NCBI GenBank assembly: GCA_045604085.1
Contig: JAZUNK010000023.1
Span: 1 to 62,925 of the forward strand
Reading direction: 5' to 3'
DNA length: 62,925 nt
From: Candidatus Nanosyncoccus sp.
GTDB taxonomy: Bacteria > Patescibacteriota > Saccharimonadia > Saccharimonadales > Saccharimonadaceae
A model generated the notes under the pieces. The model saw nothing but the letters and a program-made list of their open reading frames with translations, made no database searches and was not told where the DNA came from. Positions 19,951-54,050 of the stretch are shown here, piece after piece (the stretch's first letter is position 1; every line of letters begins with the position of its first letter). The position numbers and the translations under genes were made by a program.

Positions 19951-20082
19951 AGTTTGGATCTGTTTGTCCTGCAAAGAAAATGCAACGCAAATCAAGAAAA
20001 ATCCCCTTTATTTGTCCTACGGACTTAGAGGAGATTTTTTCTTTGCTGAGTTGTGTTTTTTTACGACAAATAAATCTGGATT
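19951..20082. repeat. Long imperfect palindrome (fold-back element 1)
   Basis: GGATCTGTTTGTC/GACAAATAAATCT, AAAATGCAAC/GTTGTGTTTT, AAAAATCCCCT/AGGAGATTTTT; apex GTCC-TAC-GGAC. Confidence 0.75.
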
Positions 20083-20112
20083 AAATCTCATTACGCTGTT
20101 TTAGATAGGATT

Positions 20113-21312
20113 TTATTTTCTAGCGCTTATCCTATATTCTATATCTCTTAACACATTTTCAAAATACATAAACGATTCGTACGGCGAAGCGTAGGCGGAA
20201 AAATAGGCATGGACATCGCCATCGTTCCAATATTTTGTGCACATTGAGTAAGGATGATCGGAAGTCGTCATATATCGCCAATCGCGAATTAGGTCCTCGT
20301 CTTTAGTCTCCATAACATCTGTTCGCATTGAATAAAGCTCTTCCATCGCGGAAGTCTGCATTGAATTTGATAACCAGGCCGAAAGGTCTCGCTCCGTGTC
20401 GGCCCAAGTGACTGTTTCCGGCATCGAAATTTCATCAACCGGCCCAGAAGAATTACAAGCTTCAGAGACCGTAAGAAATTTGTTATCATATTCTTTCAGC
20501 CATTCCGGAATTAGATTATTCATAAAATCAAAGATACCAGTGTCTTTCCATTGATGTTCGCCAAAAGTTTCAAAATCCATAAATAGATTTATTAAATTTC
20601 CTCGCAAGCAATCCATTTCGAGCCAATTCTTATATTTTGGTACAGTCAGCGGCCATTCGCTCCAACTACGATTTGAGAACCGGAATGCAACATCATCTGA
20701 AAGACGATAATTTTTTAATAAGAGTTTTATATTTTTACATCCAGCTGGACGATAAACATAGTTCGGGCTGCGCCAGCCAAGGATTTTATCCCAACCTTCA
20801 GCCAAAATGCCACGATAACCTTGTTCCTCCGCCCATTTAGCCAAATTATCATTATAAGCAAATTCTGTGTTGCGGAAAACTTTCGGAGTTACGCCGAACA
20901 AGCCTTTAATTTTTTCGGTGTGTTTTTTTACTTGTTCGTTAAATTCGTCGCGATCATAGAAAAATGCGAGTGAGTGATAGTATGTCTCGCTAACAATTTC
21001 AACTTGCCCATAATCAACCATACGCTTAACTTGTTTAATTAATTCGGGACCCCATTTTTCAGCTTGATCTAACCAGGTGCCAGTAATTGAAAAAGATACC
21101 TTAAAGCCAGGATATTTTTTCATATTTTTTTCCAACAAATCAAGCATTGGTATATAACTTTTTTCTGCGACTTTTTTAAAGATACGCTCATTTGACTGAC
21201 GGCCGTTATAATTATCGTTAAAATAGTTAGAATTATTCGCAACGTCAAAAATAGAATATTCGCGATAGCGAACAGGCTGATGAATATGTAGATATAAACA
21301 AATCGCGCGCAC
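20113..21312 (-). CDS. GH57 alpha-amylase/glucan hydrolase
   Basis: HIHQP, ETYYHS, FRNTE, FMDFETFGEH. Confidence 0.92.
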   Translation of the reverse strand: MRAICLYLHIHQPVRYREYSIFDVANNSNYFNDNYNGRQSNERIFKKVAEKSYIPMLDLLEKNMKKYPGFKVSFSITGTWLDQAEKWGPELIKQVKRMVDYGQVEIVSETYYHSLAFFYDRDEFNEQVKKHTEKIKGLFGVTPKVFRNTEFAYNDNLAKWAEEQGYRGILAEGWDKILGWRSPNYVYRPAGCKNIKLLLKNYRLSDDVAFRFSNRSWSEWPLTVPKYKNWLEMDCLRGNLINLFMDFETFGEHQWKDTGIFDFMNNLIPEWLKEYDNKFLTVSEACNSSGPVDEISMPETVTWADTERDLSAWLSNSMQTSAMEELYSMRTDVMETKDEDLIRDWRYMTTSDHPYSMCTKYWNDGDVHAYFSAYASPYESFMYFENVLRDIEYRISARK

Positions 21313-21315
21313 CCT

Positions 21316-22536
21316 CTATTTCCTCTTATGCTTTACATCATTATAAATCTTTAAACATTTTTTTGCAACTTGATCCCAAGATATTTTGTGATATTCATTC
21401 TTTATATTGTCTTGCAGAGTTTTATAAAGAACTGGGTTTTCAACAATCGCAAGTATCTCATCCGCAAGTTTTTTGATATCCCAAAAATCATATTTCATGG
21501 CCGACCAAATGATTTCTGAAACACCGGATTGTTTAGTAATAATTAATGCATCACCATGGTGTGCCGCTTCTAGCGCAGTGAGGCCAAATGGTTCAGATAT
21601 TGAGCTCATTACGAATATGTTCGAAATAGAATATATGTCGCGTAATTTTTTTCCGCGAATAAAGCCAGTGAAAATTACATTTTTAGAAATTCCAAGATCG
21701 GCAGCTAGATTAATTAGATCATTTCTTTCTTCGCCGTCTCCAGCAAAGACAAAAATTAATTTAGGATTTTTTGAAATAGCGAGAGCGGCGGCATGCATTA
21801 AATTATATAAACCTTTTTGAATCGTAAAACGCCCAACCGTAGAAATAATTGTATAGCCATTTTCTTTTAATTTTTCTAAATACCCATATGAATCTTCGTT
21901 AAATTTATAATCTGCTATATCATAATTTTCGTCAAGGGAATTATAAATTACATCGATCTTATTTAATGGGATGTGATATTTCTCATGAATAATCCGCTTC
22001 GTTATTTCTGAGACTGCAATAATTTTATCAGCAAACATTAAGCCTTCGTACTCAATTTCATGAATTAACGGATTACCCGCGTGCATGCCAGCTCGATCGA
22101 ATTCAGTAGCATGAACATGAGCGATTAGCGGAAGACCATATTGCTTTTTAGCCAAAATGCCAGCTTCATAAGTCAGCCAATCGTGTGCGTGGACTAGATC
22201 TGGCTTATATTCCATAAGATATTTTTCAATAAATTCACAATATGTTTTTTGAACATCGCGAAGAGAAACCAGGCTGCTCTTATCGATAGTAGGAATGATT
22301 TCTTCAAAAAGTTTTAAGGATTCATATGACCCGCCGCCATAACGGAAAAGTGGGTCAAGATGCGTAGCTGAAAGGATATGCATGAAATTAATTTCAGGAT
22401 AATCGGCTTCATAGGGAATCACGAAATCGATTTTGGCACCTTCCTTAGAGAGAGCGCGTGCCATATTTAAACAAGCAACACCAAGCCCCCCACTATTATG
22501 GGGTGGGAGCTCCCAGCCTAGCATGAGTATTTTCAT
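21316..22536 (-). CDS. GT4 glycosyltransferase (glycogen synthase-like)
   Basis: GWELPPHNSGGLG, HAHDWLT, HATEFDR, SEPFGLTALEA. Confidence 0.9.
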   Translation of the reverse strand: MKILMLGWELPPHNSGGLGVACLNMARALSKEGAKIDFVIPYEADYPEINFMHILSATHLDPLFRYGGGSYESLKLFEEIIPTIDKSSLVSLRDVQKTYCEFIEKYLMEYKPDLVHAHDWLTYEAGILAKKQYGLPLIAHVHATEFDRAGMHAGNPLIHEIEYEGLMFADKIIAVSEITKRIIHEKYHIPLNKIDVIYNSLDENYDIADYKFNEDSYGYLEKLKENGYTIISTVGRFTIQKGLYNLMHAAALAISKNPKLIFVFAGDGEERNDLINLAADLGISKNVIFTGFIRGKKLRDIYSISNIFVMSSISEPFGLTALEAAHHGDALIITKQSGVSEIIWSAMKYDFWDIKKLADEILAIVENPVLYKTLQDNIKNEYHKISWDQVAKKCLKIYNDVKHKRK

Positions 22537-22579
22537 CTATACTATTTTAGCATGATTTAAGAATAATCACAATAAAAAA

Positions 22580-22655
22580 TGGCAGGGGTGGCAGGACTTG
22601 AACCCACGACACGCGGTTTTGGAGACCGCTGCTCTACCAACTGAGCTACACCCCT
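22580..22655 (-). tRNA. tRNA-Trp(CCA)
   Basis: Minus strand AGGGGTG...GCGGT-CTCCAAA-ACCGC...CACCCCTGCCA. Confidence 0.95.
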
Positions 22656-22717
22656 AACTAAATGTACTACATATATTTTACCATAAAATACTAGAAATAT
22701 GCTATAATGGTTTTATT

Positions 22718-23209
22718 ATGGAAGGTAATAAAAAAAACAAACCGCGAGCGTTACTAGTTTTCGGTGCCCCTTGTAGTGGAAAAACTTTGTTTGCAGAAAA
22801 ATTTGCGAACAAATTTAGTCTTGCATATTATAATTTAGATGAAATTCGATCGGATCATGATTTTTCCCACAAAACGTTGCTTGCAATCCTCGAGTTAATT
22901 ACACGAACTAAACAAACTCTAATTATAGAAGGTGGTCTGAAAACCGAAAAAGATAGAACGGATATTCGTAATATTTTAAGGAATAATGGGTATGAACCTT
23001 CTCTCGTTTGGGTACAAACTGATTTTTCTACAATTAAATTGCGCCTGAAGTCGAAATATCGAAATATTAAAAAAGCCAAAGAAATCTATGACAACGCAGT
23101 AGCCGAACTAGAGGCTCCTGCTGATTTTGAAAAACCAATCATACTGTCTGGCAAACATACTTTTGAAACTCAAACTAAACATGTGTTGACTGGACTTGCG
23201 GACATCTAA
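22718..23209 (+). CDS. P-loop kinase (AAA_33-like)
   Basis: GAPCSGKT Walker A in a small kinase fold. Confidence 0.75.
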   Translation: MEGNKKNKPRALLVFGAPCSGKTLFAEKFANKFSLAYYNLDEIRSDHDFSHKTLLAILELITRTKQTLIIEGGLKTEKDRTDIRNILRNNGYEPSLVWVQTDFSTIKLRLKSKYRNIKKAKEIYDNAVAELEAPADFEKPIILSGKHTFETQTKHVLTGLADI

Positions 23210-23216
23210 AAAATAA

Positions 23217-23762
23217 ATGATCATAAACGATGAAGAATTTGGGGAAGTAATTGTAAGAAAAAACTCTTTAGCACGAGGTGTTAAGTTTTCTATTTCTACA
23301 TCCGGGCGACTACAAATGTCGGTTCCAAAATACACTTCAAATTTTTTAGCGAAGAGATTTCTAAATACTAGTCGCGAAGAGATACATAAAAAATTACCGA
23401 TCAAAGATCCCAAAGAGCAACGATCTAGAGACTATCAAAAAAAATTACTCACCAAGAAAGCTAAAGAGTATTTGCCATATCGTTTGGAATATTATGCTAA
23501 ACTCTATGGGTATTCTTATAGCAAGTGTCGGTTAAGCCACGCCAATACAAGATGGGGGAGTTGTTCTAGCAATCGAACCATTTCATTAAATATAGGCCTA
23601 ATGAAGGTTCCGGAAATTTTAAGAGATTATGTGATTTTACACGAACTAGCACATCTTAATCATATGGATCACTCAAAAGCTTTTTGGGCGGAAGTCAGTC
23701 TTCATGATAAAAATTATAAAATTCACGAAAAAAAATTAAAAATGTTTAATCCGGGAGTTTGA
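23217..23762 (+). CDS. YgjP/DUF45 metal-dependent hydrolase
   Basis: TRWGSCS, YVILHELAH..HMDHS..FW. Confidence 0.88.
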   Translation: MIINDEEFGEVIVRKNSLARGVKFSISTSGRLQMSVPKYTSNFLAKRFLNTSREEIHKKLPIKDPKEQRSRDYQKKLLTKKAKEYLPYRLEYYAKLYGYSYSKCRLSHANTRWGSCSSNRTISLNIGLMKVPEILRDYVILHELAHLNHMDHSKAFWAEVSLHDKNYKIHEKKLKMFNPGV

Positions 23763-23884
23763 GACAAATTACCCTATAAAATACGCAACTATGTTTTTTA
23801 AATATAATAGTGTGTTTTAAAAAAATGTATATTTTTTAAATAAAATTTAAAGCTTATGCTATAATAGACGTAAAGGAGGATGGT

Positions 23885-24376
23885 GTGGAGCTTAAAAAGC
23901 ATTTAAGTCCGAGAAGTTTTTTAATCGGTATGTATGTCTTTGCCTTTTTGGTGTATATTATTTATGGTCTGCAGCCGGCAAAAGCTTCTTATTATAATAT
24001 TTCGACAAAAATTTTAATCCCTAGCATCAATCTCTCTTCGGATGTGACAGAATTAAAACTTGAAAATCAAAAACTTAATACTCCAGACGAAATTGTAGGT
24101 AGTTTTTCGAAATATAAAAATAAAACACTCCTTATTGGACATTCTAGTACGGTTTTTGAAAATTTATCTAATTTAGAAATAAAAGAATCCGTCTTTTACG
24201 ATCAAAAACACTATATTATTACCGAAAAAAAGATTTTATTAAAGTCAGATATACGAATGAGCGAACTTTTATCCGAATCAGAAAGAGACACGTTAATTAT
24301 TATGACTTGCGCTGGAGAGGATCTCGGTAACGGCGATGCTACGGAGCGCTTGATTTTAACAGCTAAAAGACTCTAA
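23885..24376 (+). CDS. Sortase-family protein (class F-like)
   Basis: N-terminal TM, LIGHS, IMTCAG, ERLI (His/Cys/Arg triad). Confidence 0.75.
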   Translation: MELKKHLSPRSFLIGMYVFAFLVYIIYGLQPAKASYYNISTKILIPSINLSSDVTELKLENQKLNTPDEIVGSFSKYKNKTLLIGHSSTVFENLSNLEIKESVFYDQKHYIITEKKILLKSDIRMSELLSESERDTLIIMTCAGEDLGNGDATERLILTAKRL

Positions 24377-26325
24377 AGCTTCTTTAGTTGTATTGCGAAT
24401 CCACCTCCTGGAGCCATATAAATATCAATATAATCATAGTTACCAACACGTTTATGCTGTTTTTTGATACTAAATTGATTATCGCGATAGTGAGCGTCGT
24501 CGGCATCAGCATATACAACCGCCTCAAAAACTCCTTCGCCCAAAAAGTCGAGAGAAATGTGGATGTGCCGAGAAGACTCGTCAGTAACACCCCCAAGATA
24601 CCAATTTTCTGAATCTCGATCTTTTCGCGCGACGATATAATATTCGCCGATTTCACCAGCGAGCGGAATAGTTTTTTCAAAATTTGTAGGAACATTACGA
24701 ATAAAAGTGAATTCGTCTGAGAACCTCTCTTCGTAGATAAAGGGTCGGTCGGCCGCCATTTGCATGCCAGAGTAAATGGTGACAAAATAGGCGAGCTGCC
24801 TAGCTAGGGTCGTAGATATTCTTCGAACATTATTTGCAAGGTCAAAAATTCCACTTGTATAATCCATCCCGCCAGCAAGTAGTCTTGTATATGGCAAAAA
24901 ACAAGCGTGAGAAGGAGATAGGGCTCCGCCTTCGTATTCTTGTCCACGAGCGCCCTCACGAGACAAGAGATTCGGCCAAGTGCGTTCAATACCGGTACCT
25001 TTAATTGGCTCGTGAATGTCTAGGCAAATATGTTTTTTTGCAGCCAATTCAACGGTTTTTTGATAATGTCTAACACCAAATTGTGAATGATGATATTCAC
25101 GGCGCCCATTAATTAGCATCATGCTGCCGGCGTAACCAGTTTTTATGTAATGAATATTATTAGAAGCATAATAATTATAAGCCTCTTCGATTTGTTGTTC
25201 ATAGTTGTCTATAAAACCGACCGTCTCATTGTGGCTAATGAATTCGATATTTTTGCTTTTTGCATAGCGGGCAACTTCTTCAAAATTAAAATCCGGTGTT
25301 GAAACCGTAAATTTGTTATTAATGCCGTTTTGAAGCCAGTCGCCTTCCCAACCTTCATTCCAACCTTCAATCAATAAGCCGGAAATACCAAGCCGAACGG
25401 CGGCATCGATATATTCTTTAGCGTGTTTGGTTGTAGCGCCATGACGTTCCCCGGGTGCCCAGGTCCATTCGCCAACATACATGGCCCACCAAATACCAAT
25501 AAATTTTAAAGTTTTTACCCAACTAAAATCTCCCCTTGGCGGTTCATTTAACGCATACATAATTCGATTTGTAGTTAGCTCAATAGCTGAATCCGCAATC
25601 ATGATTAAACGCCAAGGAGATAAAAAAGGTAGGGACACATGTGCCTTCGTGCCATCGGACAGTGGAGTGATGTCTGATTTTAAAATATTTTTTTCATTTA
25701 ATTTTATAGTCATTGACCCATAATCATATAAGGCCGCTTCGTGGAGAGATATGAAATAGCCGTTAGGGGTTTTTATCGTTAACGGTGTATGGACAGAATT
25801 TTTTAAATCGTAAACACTAGTTTTTTCATAATTATACTCATAGCGATCGGGTTGATATGCAGGGATCTTCCATGCTGTTGAATTTAAATTGATATTAAAC
25901 TCAGTCAATTCGTCCTGAACCGTAAGCTGTTGAAATTTTGGTTGTGGCGGAATTTCGTAACGAAAAGCAACCCCATCATCAAAAACTCTAAACCTAAGAG
26001 TCATTATGCGTTTTGGTTCTTTACTTTCGGAAAGATAAAAAGCTGATTCAATATAGTTGTTAGAAATATATCTATCTTCGCCCCAAGGCAACTCGAAAAC
26101 TTCTTCGTGTTTTTTCTTTTGTTCGCGGATTAGTTTTAATTTATCACCAAATGGGTCCTCTCCGCAAATTAAAAAGCCAAGCTTTGATGAATTAATAATT
26201 ATCTTGCCATCTTTATAAACTGAATAACTGATTCCATTAGATTTTAGAACGAAATGACATTTAACTCGACCATTAGGTGAAAAAATATCACGCTCTATTT
26301 CACTTTTTCCGAACCAATTAAACAT
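24373..26325 (-). CDS. GH97 alpha-glucosidase
   Basis: LHEAALYDY, GIWW, LIEGWN, HNET, KTGY, EGARGQEY, MAAD. Confidence 0.93.
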   Translation of the reverse strand: MFNWFGKSEIERDIFSPNGRVKCHFVLKSNGISYSVYKDGKIIINSSKLGFLICGEDPFGDKLKLIREQKKKHEEVFELPWGEDRYISNNYIESAFYLSESKEPKRIMTLRFRVFDDGVAFRYEIPPQPKFQQLTVQDELTEFNINLNSTAWKIPAYQPDRYEYNYEKTSVYDLKNSVHTPLTIKTPNGYFISLHEAALYDYGSMTIKLNEKNILKSDITPLSDGTKAHVSLPFLSPWRLIMIADSAIELTTNRIMYALNEPPRGDFSWVKTLKFIGIWWAMYVGEWTWAPGERHGATTKHAKEYIDAAVRLGISGLLIEGWNEGWEGDWLQNGINNKFTVSTPDFNFEEVARYAKSKNIEFISHNETVGFIDNYEQQIEEAYNYYASNNIHYIKTGYAGSMMLINGRREYHHSQFGVRHYQKTVELAAKKHICLDIHEPIKGTGIERTWPNLLSREGARGQEYEGGALSPSHACFLPYTRLLAGGMDYTSGIFDLANNVRRISTTLARQLAYFVTIYSGMQMAADRPFIYEERFSDEFTFIRNVPTNFEKTIPLAGEIGEYYIVARKDRDSENWYLGGVTDESSRHIHISLDFLGEGVFEAVVYADADDAHYRDNQFSIKKQHKRVGNYDYIDIYMAPGGGFAIQLKKL

Positions 26326-26380
26326 AAGTTTATTATAACATAGCTAAGGGTTTGGGTTAATATGATATAATATATAATAT

Positions 26381-30733: not shown

Positions 30734-32368
30734 TTATTTCTGTCTATTTCCAGGCATCATCATTTGATTAGTGTTACTATTACCAACTACAGTAGTAATA
30801 CTGGAAATTGTAAAATCTTGATATTTTGTACCGTTCAGATAAATTGCGTAAGTTTCGCCAAGTTTAAAATTCTCCGAGCCGACTGAAATATGATTAAAAG
30901 TTTTTGCAGAAGTATGAGAAATAATTGTTTCGTTTGCTGAATTTTTAATTTCAATTTTAGTTCCAGAGGCCTGAGCGGAAGCGAGATAGATGCTTGCATT
31001 ATAAACTGCTGAATTAGAGCCTAGTGTTTCAGCCATACCACTAGCGCCAACAGCAATTACTGTTCCGCCACTCATGCTGATTCCAGCACCAGCATCTAAT
31101 GCGCCATTACCGTTATTTGTTGGTCCATCGACTATAATGGTTCCACCGTTAAAGTAAAGATAGCCATTACTGTCAATACCGTCGCCAGACGAATTAACAT
31201 AAACATTCCCGCCGCTAATCGTTATTATACAACTCGTGTCCGCATCAAAGGCACCGGCGCCTTGACGATTTGTCGCCGATGCGTCAGCTCCCCCGCCAGC
31301 ATTCATCCCGTCATCAGAAGCAATAATGTTGATTTCTCCGCCATTAATAGTAATCGCTTGAGCTTCAATCCCTTCGTAAGATTTTTTGATCGCAATATTC
31401 CCACCGTCGATAATTAATTCTTTATCAGCATGAATGCCATCATCGCCGGAAGTTATTTCAAAGTTACCGTCGACAATTCCAACGTAATTATTAGAATGGA
31501 TTGCGTCGTCATAAGTATTGATTTTGAAATCGCCGCCATATATTAGTATACTGTTTATAGCTTTTAGGCCCTTTGCGGATGAAATAATATCAAAAGATCC
31601 TTTTTCAATTAGGACGAATCCTTTTCCAGTATCAGTTTCATTCGTAGATTTAATAGCATCAGCAACTGAATTAATTGTAAAATTACCATCGACGATATAA
31701 ACCGAATCTTTTCCACGAATTCCATCGTCGTTTGCCGTGATGTTATATATTCCACCGTTAAATTTTAAATCATCCTTGCTCACTATACCGTCTTGATATT
31801 TTGCAGTTAAATCTAAACTACCGTCGCCCTGAAAGGTTAAATCGGCTTTAGAATAAATTGCTCCCGTAACATCTTCATCATAATCGGCAGAATAGCTTGC
31901 ATTATCTTCCAAAGTGTTTTCACCAACGAGCTCGATTACTAGATCGTCAGCAGAATAACAAGCAATCGCTGGGCCAGAAGAGTTTTTAATATTGACATTG
32001 TCAAGAATTAATCTCACGACCCCATCACCGGCATTAATGATAATTAACCCGTCATTTAAATTTCCGGTAAGATGGTAGGTTCCAGATTCGGTGATAGTTA
32101 ACGTTTCGGCTAGTTCAACATCGAGAGTTTTGTAGCGATCCCAGTTTATTTTGAGGTCACCATTATCGGCCGATATTGTGCCTTCAATTTTTGTGCTGGA
32201 GCCATCTATATGATTATTGTTCATTATTATAGTAGTTATAATAGCTACAAAAATAACTAGACCGATAAGAAACCATTTTGCGTCGATCCCAGTCTCAAAT
32301 TTTGGTCCAGGAAGATCAGTCTTGATTACCGGTGCCTTCTTGGATTTTTTACCATTAGTCTTCGTCAT
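30734..32368 (-). CDS. Carbohydrate-binding beta-helix protein (DUF4353/Cthe_2159-like)
   Basis: ITESGTYHLTG, repeated DGI/DAI.S/GG.F.I units, DGIDSNG. Confidence 0.85.
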   Translation of the reverse strand: MTKTNGKKSKKAPVIKTDLPGPKFETGIDAKWFLIGLVIFVAIITTIIMNNNHIDGSSTKIEGTISADNGDLKINWDRYKTLDVELAETLTITESGTYHLTGNLNDGLIIINAGDGVVRLILDNVNIKNSSGPAIACYSADDLVIELVGENTLEDNASYSADYDEDVTGAIYSKADLTFQGDGSLDLTAKYQDGIVSKDDLKFNGGIYNITANDDGIRGKDSVYIVDGNFTINSVADAIKSTNETDTGKGFVLIEKGSFDIISSAKGLKAINSILIYGGDFKINTYDDAIHSNNYVGIVDGNFEITSGDDGIHADKELIIDGGNIAIKKSYEGIEAQAITINGGEINIIASDDGMNAGGGADASATNRQGAGAFDADTSCIITISGGNVYVNSSGDGIDSNGYLYFNGGTIIVDGPTNNGNGALDAGAGISMSGGTVIAVGASGMAETLGSNSAVYNASIYLASAQASGTKIEIKNSANETIISHTSAKTFNHISVGSENFKLGETYAIYLNGTKYQDFTISSITTVVGNSNTNQMMMPGNRQK

Positions 32369-33765: not shown

Positions 33766-33798
33766 ATATTATATACTATAGGTTAAAATTAGCTTAAA
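33766..33798 (-). promoter_or_regulatory. OmpR/CiaR-type direct-repeat box and -10 for the VTC operon
   Basis: Minus strand TTTAAG-N5-TTTAAC, 10 bp, TAATAT, 7 bp, ATG. Confidence 0.65.
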
Positions 33799-33968
33799 AT
33801 AACTGCATAGAGCGAGCCCACTTATTTTTAACAACTTTTCCTCATCCGAGGCGAGTAAAGTTGCAAGCCCGAAGGGCTGTGCAACTTGATCGAGACGAGG
33901 ATTGAGCGAAACGTTGTGAAAAATAATATGGCGCGAGCGTAAAGCAGTTATTTTAAGCTAATTTTAAC
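33782..33968. repeat. Long palindrome (fold-back element 2) with 25 bp perfect terminal inverted repeat
   Basis: GTTAAAATTAGCTTAAAATAACTGC (33782-33806) / complement (33944-33968); apex GCCC-GAA-GGGC at 33867-33877. Confidence 0.9.
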
Positions 33969-38875: not shown

Positions 38876-38950
38876 TGGGGATTCGCCAAGTGGTAAGGCA
38901 TCGGGTTCTGGTCCCGACATTCGGGGGTTCGAATCCCTCATCCCCAGCCA
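38876..38950 (+). tRNA. tRNA-Gln(CTG)
   Basis: TGGGGAT/ATCCCCA acceptor stem, TCGGG-TTCTGGT-CCCGA anticodon arm, CCA end. Confidence 0.95.
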
Positions 38951-38993
38951 TGCTCTTCCAGAGAGCTTTTTTGTTCGGGACTCGTTCTTCGAA

Positions 38994-39210
38994 TCGAATC
39001 CCTCATCCCCAGCCATGATAGTCTTTGATGAGAAGAAACTAGGAAAGCGTAGCTTTCCGAAGGATACGAGAAATGTAAAAAATCTAGAGCTCGCTCTAGT
39101 ATTTTTTACATTTTGAGTAGACTGAAGGGGCATAGCCCCTAGTTTCTTCTTGACGTAATTATCTGGCTCGCAGGGAATATAGGGATTATATATCCCTCAT
39201 CCCCAGCCAT
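38994..39210 (+). repeat. Two extra direct copies of the tRNA-Gln 3' end
   Basis: TCGAATCCCTCATCCCCAGCCATG at 38994-39017; ATCCCTCATCCCCAGCCAT at 39192-39210. Confidence 0.9.
38997..39187. repeat. Long branched palindrome (fold-back element 3)
   Basis: AGAAGAAACTAGG/CCTAGTTTCTTCT, AAATGTAAAAAAT/ATTTTTTACATTT, side hairpins GGAAAGC-GTA-GCTTTCC and GGGGC-ATA-GCCCC. Confidence 0.85.
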
Positions 39211-41520: not shown

Positions 41521-41570
41521 GTTCGTTAAAAATAAATACCTTTTTAAGATTGTATTATATAATAGTATAT

Positions 41571-42527
41571 ATGAAGAAAAAAATTTTCACGAAAAGTGAG
41601 CTAAAAACGCTCTCGGCAGAAGAGATTATTGAAAAAATAAAATATGAGAATTATTCGTTGCTCGATTCATTTGGTGCAGAAAAACTAAGAAAAGAAATGG
41701 TACCGGTTGGGAAAGTTTGTAATGCAATTGTAAATTATTTTTTTAGAACTACTGGGCCTAAGCACAATCAGGAAAAACATAACAAGGCCGCGCGGAAGAA
41801 ATTAGTGAAGGTTCTTTCTAAAATTGCACCTGGGACTTATTCTAATGTTCCGAAAGATAACAAAAATGGGCTCATAGTTGGCTTCAATCATCCTTCGCTT
41901 GGTGAAATTGGCAGAATTCTAATGATGAAAATAGACATTATGGGCAATAAGCCAATGTATTTTCCGGTAAATTTGCCATGGTACGAAGCTTTGGCTCCAA
42001 ACTTCGATAGAATTAAACGACTTGGAATAATTATTACTCCGACCATTACACCTTCGACCTGGAAGAAGATGAATCTAGAAGAGGGAACTATGTTATATGA
42101 GGCGGGTAATCGTATAAAAAAAGATTTTAGAAATATATACACGGAATTATCTCACGATGCGGTAAAAAATGGCGGAGTGATTTTCGTGGCACCATCAGCA
42201 ACCAGACAGGCTACCGTCTTTAAAAACAAAGCGGCTTTTGATGGAAAAGAAGATATTATACCGACAATGTCGATGCTGGCACTCAAACTATATTCTGATC
42301 CAGATGTTAACTGTGATTTTTTACCCCTCGCTATTTTGCCGCCGGAAAATTATAAACGTGGATTAAACTTAAGAAAAAAATATTGTCTGATCCCTGGCGA
42401 GATAATGACCGCAAAGTATATTCGTAACAAATACTTTAAAGATAAAGAACAAAAAAGGCTCGAGGGGTTTGATCGAGATTTCCATCAAAGAATTGCCGAC
42501 AAGTTACCGAAAAAATTTTGGTACTAA
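41571..42527 (+). CDS. Divergent lysophospholipid/glycerol-phosphate acyltransferase (PlsC/LPLAT-like)
   Basis: LIVGFNHPSLGE (HX4E, block I), VIFVAPSATR (variant of FPEGTR block III), LPLAI. Confidence 0.55.
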   Translation: MKKKIFTKSELKTLSAEEIIEKIKYENYSLLDSFGAEKLRKEMVPVGKVCNAIVNYFFRTTGPKHNQEKHNKAARKKLVKVLSKIAPGTYSNVPKDNKNGLIVGFNHPSLGEIGRILMMKIDIMGNKPMYFPVNLPWYEALAPNFDRIKRLGIIITPTITPSTWKKMNLEEGTMLYEAGNRIKKDFRNIYTELSHDAVKNGGVIFVAPSATRQATVFKNKAAFDGKEDIIPTMSMLALKLYSDPDVNCDFLPLAILPPENYKRGLNLRKKYCLIPGEIMTAKYIRNKYFKDKEQKRLEGFDRDFHQRIADKLPKKFWY

Positions 42528-45361: not shown

Positions 45362-45399
45362 GAAAATCGAAATGAAAGTGAATTCCATTTCGATTTTTT
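45362..45399 (+). terminator. Terminator after nusG
   Basis: AAAATCGAAATG...CATTTCGATTTT plus T run. Confidence 0.7.
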
Positions 45400-45477
45400 G
45401 TTTACAAAAATGGATTTTTGTAGTATAATTATTCAGTTACGCAAAATGCTTCTATATTAAATTAAATAAGGATTTGT

Positions 45478-45906: not shown

Positions 45907-45916
45907 AATTAATTAA

Positions 45917-45945
45917 GTTGGGAGGGAAAAACCCGTTAATACCAC
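45917..45945 (+). promoter_or_regulatory. L1 autoregulatory mRNA binding site
   Basis: GTTGGGAG-GGAAAACCC-GTTAATACCAC just before the rplA SD, resembling L1-binding leaders. Confidence 0.6.
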
Positions 45946-45957
45946 GAAAGGAATAAT

Positions 45958-46857: not shown

Positions 46858-46876
46858 CCCTTCGGGGCTATTTTTT
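46852..46876 (+). terminator. Terminator after rplA
   Basis: AATAGCCC-TTCG-GGGCTATT plus T run. Confidence 0.9.
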
Positions 46877-46892
46877 ATGCTATAATAAACTT

Positions 46893-47471: not shown

Positions 47472-47561
47472 GCTAAAAGTTGACTTTTTGAGAAAAGTGT
47501 GCTATAATAAAAAGAGGTTACGATGTAATTGCTCATTAAAATGTTTTTTGGAGGTGTGCCA

Positions 47562-48230
47562 ATGCGCAGATTTGTGTGGAGAAATCGGACCATATCAAGC
47601 CCGTCCGACTACGAAGAGTCTATGGAGTTCGCTCGGTTAACTCCCGAGCAGCTCAAGTACAAAAAAATAGCAGCCGAAGAGATGTATTACAAAAGCGATA
47701 AGCTTTATCGTCGAAGTGTCTCTCCAAAGGGCTGGGCAGAGCTTCTTGTTATTGCACTACTTATTACATTTGCTGTAGCTCTTGCTACAAAATCCGTACT
47801 AGCCGGCGTGGCGGTATTCGCAGTTGTTTTGGTAGCAAAACTACTTTACTGTCAAAAGCTAAAGGCTAGTGCAAGCCAAGCGAAAGACAGCTTGGACGAA
47901 ATCCTCGATAAGAGCAAAACGATAATCAGACCCAGCAGCTTCACATCAACCGATAAGCCTCTTTCTCCGGATAAAGATTTTTACTTTGATCTTCCGCCGG
48001 TCAAAAAAGAGAGGCGATACGAATTCCACCTTGATGATTCACCGAAAAAAGACTCCGCCGATACCACTGACCACTCAGATAAATCTGTAACTGAGGAAGA
48101 AATCAAATCTGATTTGAAAACTGTAAATGCTTCAGGCGAAACAGAAGACGTTTTTGAAGATGATAGCGAAGAACTTCTTGCAGAAGTATTAGAGGAGCTT
48201 CGCGAGGCAGCAATTGCATTATCAACCTAA
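47562..48230 (+). CDS. Hypothetical protein with two TMs and acidic low-complexity tail
   Basis: SD GGAGGTG before ATG 47562; own promoter (TTGACT...TATAAT) and terminator at 48238-48262. Confidence 0.65.
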   Translation: MRRFVWRNRTISSPSDYEESMEFARLTPEQLKYKKIAAEEMYYKSDKLYRRSVSPKGWAELLVIALLITFAVALATKSVLAGVAVFAVVLVAKLLYCQKLKASASQAKDSLDEILDKSKTIIRPSSFTSTDKPLSPDKDFYFDLPPVKKERRYEFHLDDSPKKDSADTTDHSDKSVTEEEIKSDLKTVNASGETEDVFEDDSEELLAEVLEELREAAIALST

Positions 48231-48297
48231 CCATTTAGGTCCGCACTTTTGCGGACCTTTTTCTTGATTTTTTAAAGTATCAGTGATATAATAAAGG

Positions 48298-48352
48298 CAG
48301 TTACCAAAGACAGTGGCGAGGTTAACCTTTAATAATGCCACCTAGGAGATTC
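48298..48352 (+). promoter_or_regulatory. L10 leader (rplJL autoregulatory RNA)
   Basis: CCAAAGACAGTGGC...TTAA...GCCACCTAGG matches L10-leader pattern upstream of rplJ. Confidence 0.7.
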
Positions 48353-48424
48353 TTATGATTTTGTTTGGTGACGCTATTTAACAATTAGCTAACTAAATAT
48401 TAATATTAACCAAAGGAACTTTTT

Positions 48425-48922
48425 ATGGCAATTTCAAAAGATAAAAAGAATACATTGGTTGCTGATTTGACTGCGCTTCTAAATGATTCTAAGATGGTTG
48501 TTTATGCTAAATATGAAGGTTTAACCGTTGCAGAATTACAAGAGCTTAGAAAACTTGCTCGCGATGCGAATGTTAAAATTAAAGTCGTTAAGAACCGACT
48601 TGTCAAAGTCGCAATGAAAGAAATCGCGGCATATAAAGACACAGACGCTTCAGGACTTACCGGGCAATTATTGTATGCTCTTGGTAGTGACGAAGATTTC
48701 GATGCGGCTAAAGTTTTAGCAAAGTTTGCAAAAACGCACGATAAGATGGAACTAGTTGGCGGCTTCAATAGCGACGGCACAAATCTTTCGAAGGACGAAG
48801 TGACAACGCTCGGTAATCTACCGACTAAGAATGAGCTTATTGCGCAGGTCGTTGACACACTACTTTCTGGTATCAACGGCATTGTTTCTGGCTTAGAAGA
48901 ACACGCTAAAGAAAGCAACTAA
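48425..48922 (+). CDS. rplJ: 50S ribosomal protein L10
   Basis: YEGLTVAELQELRK, VVKNRL, LPTKNELIAQ. Confidence 0.96.
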   Translation: MAISKDKKNTLVADLTALLNDSKMVVYAKYEGLTVAELQELRKLARDANVKIKVVKNRLVKVAMKEIAAYKDTDASGLTGQLLYALGSDEDFDAAKVLAKFAKTHDKMELVGGFNSDGTNLSKDEVTTLGNLPTKNELIAQVVDTLLSGINGIVSGLEEHAKESN

Positions 48923-49035
48923 TTAATTATTAATCAATTTTAAAAATTGGGACACACGCCTATTTTTAAATTATAATCAAAAGGAAGATTAGGAAGGGAA
49001 GATGTGACCCTTTTCTTATTCTGAAGGAGAATTTT

Positions 49036-49407
49036 ATGGCAACTGATATTAAAAAGTTGGCAGAAGAGCTTGTTAATATGACAGTTCTAGAAGTCAATGA
49101 ATTAAAAACTTTACTTAAAGATGAGTATGGAATTGAGCCGGCAGCAGCTGTTGTAGCTGTGGCTGGTGGCGATGCTGCTGGTGCGGATGAAGGCAAGAGC
49201 GAATATGACGTCGTTCTTAAGGACGCAGGTGCGCAGAAGATTGCAGTAATTAAGGCTGTAAAGGAAGCTACTGGGCTCGGGCTCGGCGAAGCTAAAGCTA
49301 TCGTTGATGGCGCTCCGGCAACCGTAAAAGAGAAGGTCGCGAAGGCTGACGCTGAGGCGATGAAGAAAGCTCTCGAAGAGGCTGGCGCGACTGTTGAACT
49401 CGCATAA
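49036..49407 (+). CDS. rplL: 50S ribosomal protein L7/L12
   Basis: [35 protein letters not shown]. Confidence 0.97.
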
Positions 49408-49441
49408 ATAATCAAATGGTTAGCTAATTGTTATGAGAAAA

Positions 49442-49606
49442 GGAAATTAAATAATCCTTTCTTCAGTGGGCAAAATGCCCCTCAAGTTAAAAATTACAAC
49501 ACCAGTCGGACTGTTTCGGAAACTACATTTCCCTCAGTAATCCGTGGAGTTGTAATTTTTATATGAGGGGATTTTGTATATTTCGGAGAAGGATTATTTA
49601 ATTTCC
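49442..49606. repeat. Long imperfect palindrome (fold-back element 4), 18 bp perfect terminal IR
   Basis: GGAAATTAAATAATCCTT/AAGGATTATTTAATTTCC, CCCCTCA/TGAGGGG, AAAAATTACAAC/GTTGTAATTTTT; apex GGAAA-CTACA-TTTCC. Confidence 0.9.
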
Positions 49607-49623
49607 CGTGATATAATACTTGT

Positions 49624-50790
49624 ATGAACGAGTTTGACTATTTACGCGAGGGGGAAGTATATCTTGATAGTGCATGTCAAAGTTTAAGACCGAGATGCGT
49701 GATTGATGCGGTTAATAAATATTACACAGAACATAATTCTTGTGGGGAGCGAGTAAAATATAAGTGGGGAATGGAGACTGACGAAAAGGTTGAGGCAACA
49801 CGAGAAAAGGTTTTAAAGTTTTTAAAACTATCGGCGCGAAAATATACCGTTTCTTTTACACTCAATACGACTTATGGAATTAATTTAATTCTGTCGCAAA
49901 TTAAGCCAACACGTTTTAAAAAGGTAATGACAAGTGAAATTGAACATAATTCACCATTTTTAGCAACAATGGCATTCGCGAAACGAACTGGGTTACCCCG
50001 CGAAGTAATGAAGAGGAACGATGACGGCTCGATCGAAACAAGTACTTATGATTTCACAGATTCTGTGGTTGTGATTAATTGTGCGTCGAATTTTGACGGA
50101 CGAAAACTTTTGAATATTTCGGAAATAGTTAAGGCGGTGCATAAAGCTGGCGGAATTATTATTATCGATGCAGCGCAGGCGATGGCACACTCTTCCGATA
50201 TTCTACGTGGGGTTGAGGCAGATGCAATTTGTTTTTCGGCGCACAAACTATATGCGCCGTCACTTGGTGTGATCGTGTGGCGGGATGAACTTGCGTCAGA
50301 TTTAGAAGTTGGATTTGTCGGAGGCGGAATGGTGGACGATGTTAACGTAGATTCTTATTTACTATCTGCGGAGGGGAAAGAACATCGATATACGAGATTT
50401 GAATCTGGGCTGCAGGCCTGGGGGGAGATTGTAGGGTTAGGGGTAGCGTTGGATTTTTTGAATGAAGTACCAAAAAAAGAATGGCGCAAATTTGAAGAAA
50501 ATTATACAGAGCTTTATGAATTTTTAGCAAGCTCGAAAAAAGTACATCTCGTAAATTACGAAGTTAATCCGACAATGTCGTTTTACATTGAAGGAATAGA
50601 TTCACATTTACTCGGGAGTGCCCTTTCGCGAGAGAATATCATGGCGCGGACGGGATATTTTTGCGCACACTATTATCTAGACCATGTATGTAAGTTTCCG
50701 CCGTTAATTCGATTTTCGCTTGGCCTTCACAATACGCCGGAATCAATCGAAAAAGTCAAAAAAGTAATGGTAAAAATTATTCAGGAGTGA
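49624..50790 (+). CDS. SufS/CsdA-like PLP-dependent cysteine desulfurase (aminotransferase class V)
   Basis: YLDSA, EHNS, DAAQ, FSAHK, RFESG, RTGYFCA. Confidence 0.88.
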   Translation: MNEFDYLREGEVYLDSACQSLRPRCVIDAVNKYYTEHNSCGERVKYKWGMETDEKVEATREKVLKFLKLSARKYTVSFTLNTTYGINLILSQIKPTRFKKVMTSEIEHNSPFLATMAFAKRTGLPREVMKRNDDGSIETSTYDFTDSVVVINCASNFDGRKLLNISEIVKAVHKAGGIIIIDAAQAMAHSSDILRGVEADAICFSAHKLYAPSLGVIVWRDELASDLEVGFVGGGMVDDVNVDSYLLSAEGKEHRYTRFESGLQAWGEIVGLGVALDFLNEVPKKEWRKFEENYTELYEFLASSKKVHLVNYEVNPTMSFYIEGIDSHLLGSALSRENIMARTGYFCAHYYLDHVCKFPPLIRFSLGLHNTPESIEKVKKVMVKIIQE

Positions 50791-50805
50791 TAAAATAATT
50801 TTGTT

Positions 50806-51876
50806 ATGGTGTGCATAGCTGCGTTTATTATCTTGGCTTTGATTGGTGTATTTGTTGCAGCAATTTCTATTTTTAAACCAAAAATTGGAAAAGCATATTT
50901 AAAGGCTTTAAAAAAAGCTTGGGGATGTCTATGGAAAAAAGTGCGCCTACAAAAGTGTGAGACTGGATTTAAGGACGATGTGAAAAATACTTTACTTTCG
51001 CGGATAATGCTTAAAAAACCGCAACTTGTTAAACCCCTTTCGATTGTAATTGAGGTTGGCTCCATACTGATTGTGATAATTGCGGTTTGGGCAATTTTAA
51101 CCGCCATCAAGTCACTTCTAGCACTTTGGGCGCTTGGATCGTGCAACGTCACAAAGCCGTCTGCATGTTCTCTCGGGGCAGAAGTTTGTTCGATTGATGA
51201 ATCGGAACCGACTAATGTTTTTGAGGCAACAGGTAGATGGTTTACAGAATGGGGAGAAATTTTCGAGGCAATTCCTGATAAATTTAAAAATTATAATGCG
51301 GAAGATTACGATTTTAACTATATATCTATAAATAATGACGAGAATGAAACTTTGCCATACGTAATTGATATTTTTGATCCGGGATGTTCAGTATGCATGA
51401 TTTCATATCGAAATCAAAAAGAGGCGGGCTTTCTCAATAATCACAATGTTAGACTGGTACCATTTGCAATCCAGGATGCAGATAACAATTATAAATTTAA
51501 AAATTCTGAAATAATTGTTAAATATATGTTTGCGGCCGAAGGTGTTAGAAAAGGTACAGGAAAAAAAATAATTGATAAAATATTTACCGATAAGAACAGC
51601 GAGGGGTTATCTTATCAAAATAAGTTCAATGAAGATTATACGCAAGATGAGGCAATAAATAAATTAAAACAATGGCTAAAGGATTTTGGTTTAAATGAAG
51701 AAGAAATAACGAAAACGCAAGAATATACTGAAGGTAAACCATTCAAAGATGGGCAAACAATCGATGAGCTGCTAGCTAAGAATCGCGAAATTGTAGAAAA
51801 ACAACTACGCGTAAAGGGCATTCCGACCATGATTTATGATGGGAAGCGACACACTGGTCTTTGGAAAAATGAGTAA
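50806..51876 (+). CDS. Membrane-anchored DsbA/thioredoxin-fold protein
   Basis: FDPGCSVC (CxxC), cis-Pro loop VKGIPTM, two N-terminal TMs. Confidence 0.75.
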   Translation: MVCIAAFIILALIGVFVAAISIFKPKIGKAYLKALKKAWGCLWKKVRLQKCETGFKDDVKNTLLSRIMLKKPQLVKPLSIVIEVGSILIVIIAVWAILTAIKSLLALWALGSCNVTKPSACSLGAEVCSIDESEPTNVFEATGRWFTEWGEIFEAIPDKFKNYNAEDYDFNYISINNDENETLPYVIDIFDPGCSVCMISYRNQKEAGFLNNHNVRLVPFAIQDADNNYKFKNSEIIVKYMFAAEGVRKGTGKKIIDKIFTDKNSEGLSYQNKFNEDYTQDEAINKLKQWLKDFGLNEEEITKTQEYTEGKPFKDGQTIDELLAKNREIVEKQLRVKGIPTMIYDGKRHTGLWKNE

Positions 51877-51999
51877 TTTTTACAACATTTTTCACGCTAC
51901 CGATGTTTTTTAAGTGGAAAACTTTTAAGAAAAAACCTTGACTTTATGTCTGATAAGATATAATATAATATTAATACTATATTTAGACAGGAATGCGAG

Positions 52000-52521
52000 G
52001 TGATGTCTGAAATCCCAGAAAAACAAATAAAAAGGTTACGAGCTCTACTGAGCGAGGCTGAGACCAATTTGTCTGCTGCAAAGGAATTGCTGTTTTCTAT
52101 TTTGGGAGACGGCGAAAAAATTTCTGCGCCGCGAGAAACAGTTGTTTCGGGACCTGAAGGAAAAGTAATCGAAGGAATTTTTGACGGCCAAATCATGATT
52201 GGCCCGGATGGCAAAAATTATCCTGTTCCAGCGAATTACGCTTCGAAATCCAAATTAGTCGAAGGTGATATTATGAAGCTAACAATTACCGAAGATGGAA
52301 AGTTCTTGTATAAACAAATTGGGCCGGTTGAGCGAAAGACGGTAATTGGAACATTAACGCACCATGACGATAAATATTTTGTCGAAGTAGCAGGAAAAGA
52401 ATATCAGATTTTATATGCTTCGGTAACTTATTTCCATCTTCGCGATGGCTCACAGGTTTCAGTGACAATACCGGCGAAAAACGACGATGCTACATGGGCA
52501 GCGGTCGAAGCCGCTCTATAA
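52000..52521 (+). CDS. Conserved hypothetical protein (CPR-type)
   Basis: VIEGIFDGQIMIGPDGKNYPVPANYASKSKLVEGD, a motif I associate with Patescibacteria proteins; function unknown. Confidence 0.7.
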   Translation: MMSEIPEKQIKRLRALLSEAETNLSAAKELLFSILGDGEKISAPRETVVSGPEGKVIEGIFDGQIMIGPDGKNYPVPANYASKSKLVEGDIMKLTITEDGKFLYKQIGPVERKTVIGTLTHHDDKYFVEVAGKEYQILYASVTYFHLRDGSQVSVTIPAKNDDATWAAVEAAL

Positions 52522-52566
52522 ATTTAAGCTTTATTTGAGAAAGAAATTTAATAAAGAAATGATGGA

Positions 52567-52598
52567 TGAATCCGAGAAATGAATTCTCGGATTCTTTT
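52567..52598 (+). terminator. Intrinsic terminator
   Basis: GAATCCGAGAA-ATGAA-TTCTCGGATTC-TTTT. Confidence 0.75.
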
Positions 52599-52619
52599 GA
52601 TTATGATATAATGTAGATA

Positions 52620-54050
52620 GTGAAAAACCTTTATAGACGCTATAGGCCGTTAAAACTAAGCGAGGTAGTTGGTCAAGATCAAGTTATTGAGCCCTTAAAA
52701 AAATCCCTCGCTCAAGGGAAAATTGGACATGCATATCTTTTTGTGGGGCCAAGAGGGTGCGGTAAAACGAGCGTGGCGCGTATCCTAGCACATGAGGTGA
52801 ACAATTTTAAATATGAAATTGAAGATAATTATGTTGATATTATCGAGATTGACGGCGCAAGTAATCGTGGGGTCGATAATATTAGAGAATTAAGAGAAAA
52901 AGTAACGATTGCGCCAACAGCTGGAAAATATAAAGTATATATTATAGATGAAGTCCATATGTTGACAAAAGAAGCCTTCAACGCGCTTCTTAAAACCCTT
53001 GAAGAACCACCAAAACATGCAATATTCATCCTGGCGACAACTGACGCATATAAAGTACCTGTCACAATCACTTCAAGGACGCAAACCTATACTTTTAAAT
53101 TAGCTGACACTGATACGATGTTTGATTTTCTAAAATCAGTTGCCGAGAAAGAAAAAATCGACATAAGCGATGACGCGTTAAAAATTGTAGCTAAAAGGAG
53201 CGGAGGATCCTTCCGCGACTCTTTGAGCCTACTCGATCAAATCTCAACTTTATCGGAAACTAAAATTACCAAAGATTTAGTTATTTCAGCAATGGGGTTA
53301 CCAAGTGACGAAAAAATTGCGACGCTTTTGTCTGAATACATTAATGGAAATGTTGTAAAAATTGTGGCCAACCTGAAGGATTTATTATTATCTGGAGTTA
53401 AAGCCGAGACTTTAACGGAGGAAATAATTTCAAAAATCGTCGAAAATCCTAGACCTGAATTGCTAACTTTACTATCTAAATTACCCGACGTAAAGGCTCC
53501 TTATGCCGAAGCAAAATTATTGGTTGCCTTAGCTGTAAATGACGCGCGGGTGGCCGGCAATGTCTTTTTCAAGGGCGGTGACCGATTAGCTCGTTCTGAG
53601 GCGTATATTCCTGACGGACCCGAGAAAGCTGCCCGAAGGGCAGACTTTCCCGGAGCTCCAGCGCATGACGCCGAAGGCGAGTTAGTCGGCCCCAAAAAAG
53701 GCATGTCGGACAGGACCCGTGCTAATAGTAAAAGCAAGGATTTTGACTGGGATGGATTTCTTGATAATGTAAGACAGAAAAATGAGGCAGTTTATTTACA
53801 GCTGACAAAAACACAGCATGAATTGGACGGAAATGAATTACACATTTATCCGATAAAGAAAATTGTTAAAAATATTTTATCGCGCGATAATAATAAAAAA
53901 ATATTAATCGACGTGGCGGCTGGTGTAAAAATTACAATACATGAAATAGATGAGGTCCCAAATAATAGTAAAAAAGATACAACCCTCTCGAAAATATCTG
54001 ATATAATGGGTGGAGAGGTAATAAATGATGGAGGAGGAAGCCCGTTCTAG
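52620..54050 (+). CDS. dnaX: DNA polymerase III subunit gamma/tau
   Basis: LYRRYRP, GPRGCGKT, EIDGASNRGVD, IIDEVHML, FNALLKTLEEPP. Confidence 0.96.
   Translation: MKNLYRRYRPLKLSEVVGQDQVIEPLKKSLAQGKIGHAYLFVGPRGCGKTSVARILAHEVNNFKYEIEDNYVDIIEIDGASNRGVDNIRELREKVTIAPTAGKYKVYIIDEVHMLTKEAFNALLKTLEEPPKHAIFILATTDAYKVPVTITSRTQTYTFKLADTDTMFDFLKSVAEKEKIDISDDALKIVAKRSGGSFRDSLSLLDQISTLSETKITKDLVISAMGLPSDEKIATLLSEYINGNVVKIVANLKDLLLSGVKAETLTEEIISKIVENPRPELLTLLSKLPDVKAPYAEAKLLVALAVNDARVAGNVFFKGGDRLARSEAYIPDGPEKAARRADFPGAPAHDAEGELVGPKKGMSDRTRANSKSKDFDWDGFLDNVRQKNEAVYLQLTKTQHELDGNELHIYPIKKIVKNILSRDNNKKILIDVAAGVKITIHEIDEVPNNSKKDTTLSKISDIMGGEVINDGGGSPF
53544..53722 (+). repeat. Palindromic insertion in-frame within dnaX (fold-back element 5)
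   Basis: GCGCGGGT/ACCCGTGC, CCGGCAATGTCTTTTT/AAAAAGGCATGTCGG, CCGATTAGCTCGTT/GGCGAGTTAGTCGG; apex CTGCCC-GAA-GGGCAG. Confidence 0.88.

Follow-up and report, generated by a model that had tools for sequence, protein, structure and literature searches.

Fold-back DNA repeats with a strand-specific fold in the genus Candidatus Nanosyncoccus

A 62,925-nucleotide stretch of Candidatus Nanosyncoccus sp. (contig JAZUNK010000023.1 of assembly GCA_045604085.1), here called the window, carries five long imperfect palindromes, which are named below by their first positions: 19951, 33782, 38997, 49442 and 53544. Their arms look unrelated, and one of them lies inside dnaX, which raises the question of what these fold-backs are and how such DNA could come to occupy such sites. 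They have been suggested to be a structure-defined, non-autonomous repeat family or the products of a hairpin-generating process, with a possible link to REP/HUH-type elements. In this study, the five fold-backs proved to belong to a family of fold-back DNA repeats that extends across the genus. The conserved fold is that of DNA, belongs to one strand, and is independent of which strand is the mRNA strand.

Family, distribution and fold

All five palindromes fold as long rods at the positions originally reported, and every motif named for them was found in its place: the apex GCCCGAAGGGC is present at 33867 and 53631, a GTA hairpin at 39042, and minus-strand GTA hairpins at 49518 and 20014. 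Against 40 dinucleotide shuffles per copy, the best folding z (RNA/DNA parameters) was −14.7/−11.0 for the 33782 copy, −11.2/−11.4 for 49442, −9.0/−12.2 for 38997, −6.1/−3.4 for 53544 and −5.7/−2.6 for 19951. Judged by energy alone, the folding strand of the 19951 and 49442 copies is ambiguous, in agreement with the original prediction. The 19951 copy has a fold-back score of just 69, inside the shuffle range, and its membership of the family is therefore owed to its sequence relatives and not to its score.

The genome that holds the window (G000; 730 kb, 46 contigs, 96% complete) was searched with a custom genome-wide fold-back scan in which a score of at least 90 counted as strong. It contains 40 such fold-backs, compared with 0 and 1 in two block-shuffled genomes, and a second genome, G167, which is syntenic to G000 at about 75% identity, contains 45. 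BLAST clustering of the G000 fold-backs, which are rods of roughly 110 to 250 bp, gave at least nine sequence subfamilies. With subtype letters coined in this analysis (A, B, D, E, F, G and T), the window holds one copy each of F, B, D, A and the tRNA-linked T. The idea of a single loop-defined class thus gave way to five sequence subfamilies, one of them linked to tRNA genes. The arms of the five copies are indeed mutually unrelated, but each copy has sequence relatives elsewhere: four within G000 or G167, and the 38997 copy in the congener G050 and at tRNA-Ser. Triloops of the GNA type, which had been proposed as a recurring module, are enriched in the fold-backs, but only modestly (23/67 of the perfect triloop hairpins inside versus 257/1433 outside; 2.4-fold, p=0.002). 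Rfam covariance models matched no element in the window, nor any of nine loci at E≤0.5. Resemblances to the hairpin ribozyme, to T-loops and to a dnaX frameshift signal were looked at by eye and not adopted.

The distribution was tested with two cores, A and G, in 150 congeners and in 150 genomes drawn across the order. Core A occurs in 38 congeners and core G in 99, so that 109 of the 150 carry one or the other, and neither was found in any of the 150 order-level genomes. For core A, 80 of 119 genome matches were listed; the titles of 77 give Saccharibacteria or Ca. Nanosyncoccus, and the other 3 read "bacterium". Several contig ends in G000 fall within elements (contigs C24, C30, C37, C39, C40, C41, C42 and C43). 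The counts therefore understate the copy number, and halves counted separately may in some cases belong to a single locus. It also follows that these repeats disrupt assemblies.

Each element consists of a conserved imperfect core of about 75 to 130 bp, closed by a stem of 5 to 45 bp that is private to its site, and some cores have additional shared layers around them, GGGTGGC/CAGGACCC being an example. In an alignment of 48 core A sequences chosen from 101, from which the structure itself was derived, 97.9% of cells are paired, and the covariation score of 0.388, compared with 0.147, was reached by none of 500 shuffles, with slid controls below 0.1. The formal covariation test covers core A; for core G, RNAalifold on a plain MAFFT alignment returned the tip hairpin only. 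The arms of core G nevertheless pair with their own partners (score 8.4) and not with swapped arms (−5.0), and its outer arms are unrelated across copies (left versus left, −4.8). Single-base bulges in core G cluster at two distances, 26–29 (17/23) and 31–34 (26/36), and their order is left–right in 12 copies versus right–left in 1 (65 copies, 22 of them without a scored bulge). The stems are thus private to the site and carry stereotyped bulges.

The strand that folds is revealed by the mismatches. Over 127 core A copies, mismatches that stand alone and lie no more than 45 nt from the core, read on the element's own strand, are G.T in 58 cases versus A.C in 3, and where the own strand is the template strand of the host gene the counts are 25 versus 0. 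Beyond 45 nt, the bias is absent (G.T 13 versus A.C 19). Of the 127 core A apices, 64 are C-GNA-G and 19 are C-GNNA-G, including 10 GNYA, and mini-hairpins of the GNA and GNNA kind are described as far more stable in DNA than in RNA (PMC13037366). (Papers cited here and below are represented by excerpts, to which the comparisons refer.) Taken with the covariation, the presence and absence of copies in relatives and the lack of an Rfam match, this strand-specific G.T bias bears out the proposal of a structure-defined, non-autonomous family with a conserved single-strand fold.

Site states and replication polarity

A comparison of empty and filled sites in relatives, which had been suggested as a check, revealed presence and absence between related genomes. 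Forty of 59 G000 fold-backs were placeable in G167, and 24 of these 40 sites are at least 55 bp shorter there. Elements are cleanly absent from relatives at leuS residue 262 and at obgE site 1, are replaced by other cores at the same site in polA, tgt and leuS residue 685, and are flipped in place in dnaX, trmD, valS, xth and tatD. Others have collapsed to arm-only remnants of down to about 28 nt. One obgE site carries core A on one contig and core G on another, with flanks 94–97% identical. Gains, swaps, flips and collapses thus all occur at shared sites. The site of the 49442 copy holds a short terminator-like hairpin in G167 and G012 and a G-type core in G061, which makes existing hairpins look like targets. 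Host sequence enters the stems as well: about 21 nt of the 3′ flank recur in inverted form at the start of an insert in G000 contig C37, and conserved host codons are mirrored by one arm of the elements in obgE and xth. This is where the suggested hairpin-generating process finds support, for the outer arms but not beyond them. In a separate observation, two G000 elements (C30:20128–20447 and C30:8487–8692) occupy places at which, in G167, a pair of convergent genes overlap; the tails of both genes are retained and are now mirror images of one another.

Many copies lie within genes. Of the 127 core A copies, 78 are in long open frames, antisense to the host gene in 54 cases and sense in 24, and the reading frames through the elements are open in both orientations. 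The dnaX copy is one of many that sit in frame within essential genes; the other in-frame hosts in G000 are presumably gyrA, leuS (twice), pheT, polA, trmD, obgE (twice), argS, ileS, uvrB, gatA, gatB, typA, tgt, sbcB and rluB. This would amount to an apparently ongoing insertion of about 25 to 60 predicted residues into essential proteins, among them DnaX, Pol I and aminoacyl-tRNA synthetases, in hosts whose genomes are the streamlined genomes of the candidate phyla radiation.

Replication strands were called by GC skew, with the G-rich strand taken as the leading strand, which is the standard rule. Most genes lie on the G-rich strand in five of the six skewed large contigs of G167, with contig C8 as the exception. 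Of the 92 core A copies that could be scored (35 were unscorable), 82 have their own strand on the C-rich strand, as do 36 of 37 core G copies; for core G, the own strand was assigned through its purine-rich loops, a weak wobble bias (18 versus 11) and the terminal module. In G000 and G167 together, the counts are 33/36 for G and 15/17 for D/E, and among core G copies in separate metagenome loci 59/69 (15 unscorable). The folding strand is thus biased to the C-rich strand, in sense and antisense hosts alike. With the G-rich strand taken as leading, we infer that the C-rich strand, and with it the folding strand, carries the sequence of the nascent lagging strand.

This polarity can be compared with that of known systems. 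The active strand of IS608 is on the lagging-strand template (PMC5027513), which is opposite to the elements if their folding strand corresponds to the active strand. The attC bottom strands of sedentary integrons are mostly on the leading-strand template (PMC5371416), the identical side. The complementary DNA (cDNA) of diversity-generating retroelements (DGRs) prefers annealing to the lagging-strand template (PMC12875486), and the folding strand of the elements is the strand that such an annealing single-stranded DNA would take.

Possible routes of spread

We give about an even chance to the reading that the elements spread as folded single-stranded DNA that enters the nascent lagging strand, with their stems written by template switching. 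The mobile form would be single-stranded DNA, which would pair at the fork with an existing hairpin, such as a terminator, an older arm or a tRNA end, and be sealed into the lagging strand like an Okazaki piece. Fold-back copying would then mirror one flank and so write the stem from host sequence, and later template switches could flip or delete the core. In genes, only in-frame copies in tolerant loops would survive selection. Template switching at quasi-palindromes is described to yield stems of reverse-complement sequence, compensatory changes of several bases and inverted loops (PMC8794818). Without SbcCD and MutS, fold-back products would be expected to persist; SbcD and MutS were each below cut-off in five of five genomes, with positive controls, and DprA and PriA are present. 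The window itself encodes a Y-family (Pol IV/UmuC-like) polymerase at 1839–3188 and an AddA-like fusion of a UvrD helicase and a PD-(D/E)XK domain at 16240–19446, which could bear on template switching. A more far-reaching version, which we regard as rather doubtful, would make the elements a transposase-free mobile DNA whose sole information is its single-strand fold: host enzymes would insert it into the lagging strand, template switching would build its ends from the target, old ends would be captured as layers, and the element would re-home into its own remnants, rewriting loops of essential proteins throughout the genus.

Several observations weigh against spread as lagging-strand single-stranded DNA. 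Of the five copies in the window, three (33782, 38997 and 53544) face the rarer way, the GAG-type subgroup of core A is less biased (18 versus 9), subtype B is split 2 versus 2, and the perfect GNA triloops of G000 and G167 are split 10 versus 11. The strand calls come from skew in fragmented assemblies, with 97% of 153 windows in agreement with the contig-level skew, and the relatives that enter the polarity counts are not independent. The mismatch counts likewise come from related sequences, in a pattern-based collection that fixes some core positions, and at the level of alignment columns the G.T bias of core A is weaker (26 versus 13). Core G has NACG tetraloops and not GNA at its apex, and its wobble bias is weak (G.T 18 versus 11). 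That bulges and loops are conserved implies a protein that recognises them, and no such protein was found. At the sites themselves, the host-derived side is mixed over 26 site pairs, with a few clean fits and at least one case, C1:3030, that points the opposite way. Junctions of empty and filled sites show overlaps of 1, 4, 7, 21 or 33 nt, or replaced host bases, and they are blurred because the closest pairs are 75–87% identical in their flanks; no pair with flanks above 90% identity was found among 313 copies, and neither a mobile intermediate nor a fresh insertion was observed. The contigs of four DNA sequencing runs held no clean empty allele and one shorter contig-level variant, behind tRNA-Gln. 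Finally, cores at shared sites are more conserved than the host flanks (96% versus about 83% in 11 pairs selected at a core identity of at least 90%), which plain neutral decay of a parasite would not predict.

It could also be proposed that the elements are RPE- or MITE-like (RPE, Rickettsia palindromic element; MITE, miniature inverted-repeat transposable element) and owe their movement to a dedicated enzyme, of the HUH or the tyrosine recombinase kind, which has been lost, has escaped detection or is only a transient visitor. Their polarity would then be a survival bias, with copies that have their folding strand on the lagging-strand template excised or flipped faster, as for attC in sedentary integrons, whose bottom strands have the same polarity (PMC5371416). 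The conserved bulges and loops fit protein recognition, a shared terminal module exists, flips at a single site are common, and CGTC REPs are likewise without a known transposase (PMC3733652). We consider this unlikely, given the results of the enzyme search. Y1 transposase was found neither in G000 nor in the 38 carriers of core A; it occurs in 7 of 150 congeners without association with the cores, and the six Y1 loci scanned hold no family fold-back. With the polarity opposite to that of IS608, the link to REP/HUH elements made in the original prediction is not supported, and an HUH/RAYT mover was rejected on the absence of Y1 from G000 and the lack of association over the 150 congeners. Rep_trans was found in 0/5 genomes, as was Y2_Tnp, and integron integrase in 0/151, the positive controls of the last two being silent; no cassette arrays were seen. 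The single XerC/D-like recombinase of G000 scores 126 against an integron integrase cut-off of 265. A Pfam scan of 98 of the 590 open reading frames of G167, chosen as soluble and unrecognised after the others had been filtered out or recognised by eye, returned an IS3-type transposase and a resolvase and no HUH enzyme. No cognate insertion sequence with matching ends was found in G000 or G167 for the families searched. The most similar core G copies of G000 are already on the C-rich strand, which also counts against this reading. A phage as source was rejected after three viral scans, with 0, 0 and 4 matches, those 4 not folding as rods.

Three further explanations differ in what they make of the same fold. 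If the single-stranded DNA were cDNA, a reverse transcriptase (RT), probably the abundant DGR enzyme, would copy element transcripts, and the product would be annealed at the fork, a reading we hold to be quite improbable. RTs are present in 97 of 150 congeners, in 80/109 with core A or G versus 17/41 without (p=5e-4), although kinship and assembly quality confound this association. The five RT loci that were read have a template repeat and FISUMP-domain targets, motifs from which we take them to be DGR-like, and in-gene A copies are mostly antisense, so that their cDNA would be the folding strand, which the preference of DGR cDNA for the lagging-strand template would suit (PMC12875486). The five loci share no sequence with the elements, no family hairpin was seen downstream of DGR-type target genes, and 29 carriers as well as assembled G000 are without an RT match, though G000 contig C2 ends where the RT begins in G167. 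Equally improbable in our judgement is a DNA signal, polar with respect to replication, that would serve the host on the leading-strand template, whether for priming, for restart or for recombination, and that may once have been a mobile element, since domesticated. The polarity of about 90%, the conservation of shared-site cores above their flanks and the excess of windows with at least 85% third-position identity near elements (7/68 versus 28/2405 far from them) would agree with it, as would the GNA mini-hairpins at phage priming signals (PMC13037366). Against it, most sites are unshared by the two syntenic genomes, at least nine core types interchange, neither tested core is present in 41 of 150 congeners or in any order-level genome, and essential coding sequence is a costly location; PriA is present, by which a substitute for a missing PriA was also ruled out. 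Least probable are RNA-level structures, such as terminators, leaders or introns spliced out of the transcript, or hairpins that grew purely locally, without spread. Relatives do have ordinary terminators at some of the sites, the tRNA-linked subtype has its GNA loops on the transcribed strand, and the RNA energies are strongly favourable. The wobble bias and the orientation, however, track the element and replication and not transcription, frames are open in either orientation, and Rfam gave no match; a purely local origin is refuted by cores that are 90–96% identical at unrelated loci and across species.

Two observations stand beside these readings. Homing with long co-conversion tracts was considered, with single lookalikes in sbcB, trmD and polA, and is not claimed because the flank gradient is not significant (4/11 pairs; p=0.29). 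About 1% of the coding windows between G000 and G167 have a third-position identity of 85–100% against a background of 52%, as in C34:11550–12450, C20, C33:10500–11100 and 31500–32250 of the window, which suggests recent gene exchange between species.

Among known repeats, the closest kind appears, by analogy, to be RPE and not REP, a likeness judged by description. RPEs are hairpin repeats of several families, listed with a 12-bp terminal inverted repeat (PMC10969869, PMC2229807). Both kinds are hairpin repeats of 100 to 200 bp in several families, without a known mover, confined to one lineage, and found between genes as well as in frame in conserved proteins. Unlike RPE, the present family has no family-wide terminal inverted repeat, as only some copies carry an imperfect terminal module; its outer stems are private to each site, partly host-derived and with stereotyped bulges; and its fixed sites undergo core swaps, flips and collapses. 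The excerpts of these two papers mention neither a strand-specific DNA-type fold nor a replication polarity of RPE. To our knowledge, the movement of protein-coding palindromes such as RPEs has been an open question since their discovery. The family described here offers hundreds of copies over many genomes for studying it, and its measurable fold, its polarity and its visible states (filled, swapped, flipped and collapsed) make a mechanism testable. No description of the family in Saccharibacteria, Nanosyncoccus or Patescibacteria was found in the open-access literature, and Saccharibacteria and Patescibacteria are unmentioned in the Minerva preprint.

With YPAL/RU-2 and other bacterial MITEs the elements share a length of about 170 bp and a long stem-loop, and YPAL targets regions of dyad symmetry, with target duplications of variable length (PMC2229807). 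They differ in having no family-wide terminal repeat and no insertion sequence found to match, and in target copies that are inverted and not exclusively direct; an 18-nt direct repeat was seen here for the tRNA subtype only. Like attC, they are structure-defined single-stranded hairpins whose stem sequence varies, with extrahelical bases and a selectivity for one strand (PMC5371416); unlike attC, they are dispersed and lie inside essential genes, without cassette arrays or an integron integrase match, and the AAC/GTT stem end is not specially enriched (AAC ends the stem in 18/90 fold-backs, behind four other triplets). REP/REPIN-RAYT and IS200/IS605 derivatives are also palindromic, plausibly based on single-stranded DNA and linked to replication, and some REPs are intragenic (PMC3733652, PMC5027513). 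The present elements are far longer than the 20 to 40 bp of REPs, conserve the centre and vary the arms, show neither a GTAG nor a CGTC terminal tag in the core alignments, and have no adjacent Y1. Template-switch mutation gives the same reverse-complement stems, compensatory changes and loop inversions (PMC8794818), but it is a local process, which alone can neither take a core to remote loci nor maintain asymmetric loops.

Window copies and their surroundings

The copy inside a gene is of subtype A and occupies 53544–53722 on the plus strand, where it is predicted to encode, in frame, residues of about 309 to 368 of DnaX, in a variable linker. Its host, dnaX (52620–54050, plus strand; DNA polymerase III gamma/tau by Pfam), has orthologues in 41 of 41 genomes, and the linker carries other cores or the opposite orientation in congeners. 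The conserved core (53602–53670, plus) contains the GAA triloop at 53631, and the terminal module GGGTGGC ... CAGGACCC (53548–53718, plus; 53548–53554 with 53711–53718) is common to several core types. Copies 90–93% identical to this one are present in other G000 genes.

The subtype B copy (33782–33968, plus) has a perfect 25-bp outer stem private to the locus and a GAA triloop at 33867, and has a divergent VTC-domain gene on one side and a response regulator gene on the other; in G050, a G-type core lies upstream of the same gene. The subtype D copy (49442–49606, minus), between rplL and a class-V aminotransferase gene, was matched to D copies in G167. The subtype F copy (19951–20082, minus), with its minus-strand GTA triloop, lies in the intergenic stretch that separates rpmG (L33) from a convergent GH57 gene, and at its site G167 has, as read by eye, half a remnant of subtype F in the opposite orientation.

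The subtype T copy (38997–39209, plus) is a four-way fold-back behind tRNA-Gln(CTG) (38876–38950, plus), the 3′ end of which is repeated twice downstream. The 18-nt repeat lies at 38933, 38998 and 39192, and the third copy ends the element. A tRNA-end module at 38978–39015 (plus) combines a partial inverted copy of the T-arm, a short hairpin and the direct repeat of the tRNA 3′ end. Four-way folds with compensatory changes also occur at tRNA-Gln in G050 (L292) and at tRNA-Ser in G000 and G167. Integrative elements leave direct repeats of tRNA 3′ ends, and the 38997 copy, bracketed by such repeats, resembles them in this respect; unlike them, it is about 190 bp long, is non-coding and also carries the tRNA end as a degenerate copy in inverted orientation. 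A downstream direct repeat of the 3′ end follows 12 of 46 tRNAs in G000 and 6 of 44 in G167. The G000 cases, on C2, C4, C8, C28, C30, C34, C39, C41 and C42, have a hairpin spacer, and such spacers often hold an inverted T-arm copy and a GCGNAGC-type mini-hairpin.

At about 8125–8190 of the window, a short AT-rich inverted repeat between convergent genes is 39 bp longer than in G167 and is possibly a collapsed remnant. Several FISUMP-like genes with DGR-type variable ends were noticed in G000 (C8, C13, C24, C34 and C46) and at L272–L276. In G167, a pair of IS3-type transposase genes lies by a CdiA C-terminal-like gene (L238:11390–13570), and a second CdiA_C gene is at L241:9804–10205. Two conserved proteins of the window, of 325 and 173 amino acids (41550–42527 and 52000–52521), have no NCBIfam match; their G167 counterparts, and the 325-residue protein itself, have none in Pfam. 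Upstream of rplJ, an L10 leader is recognised by Rfam at 48286–48434, marginally over the gathering score.

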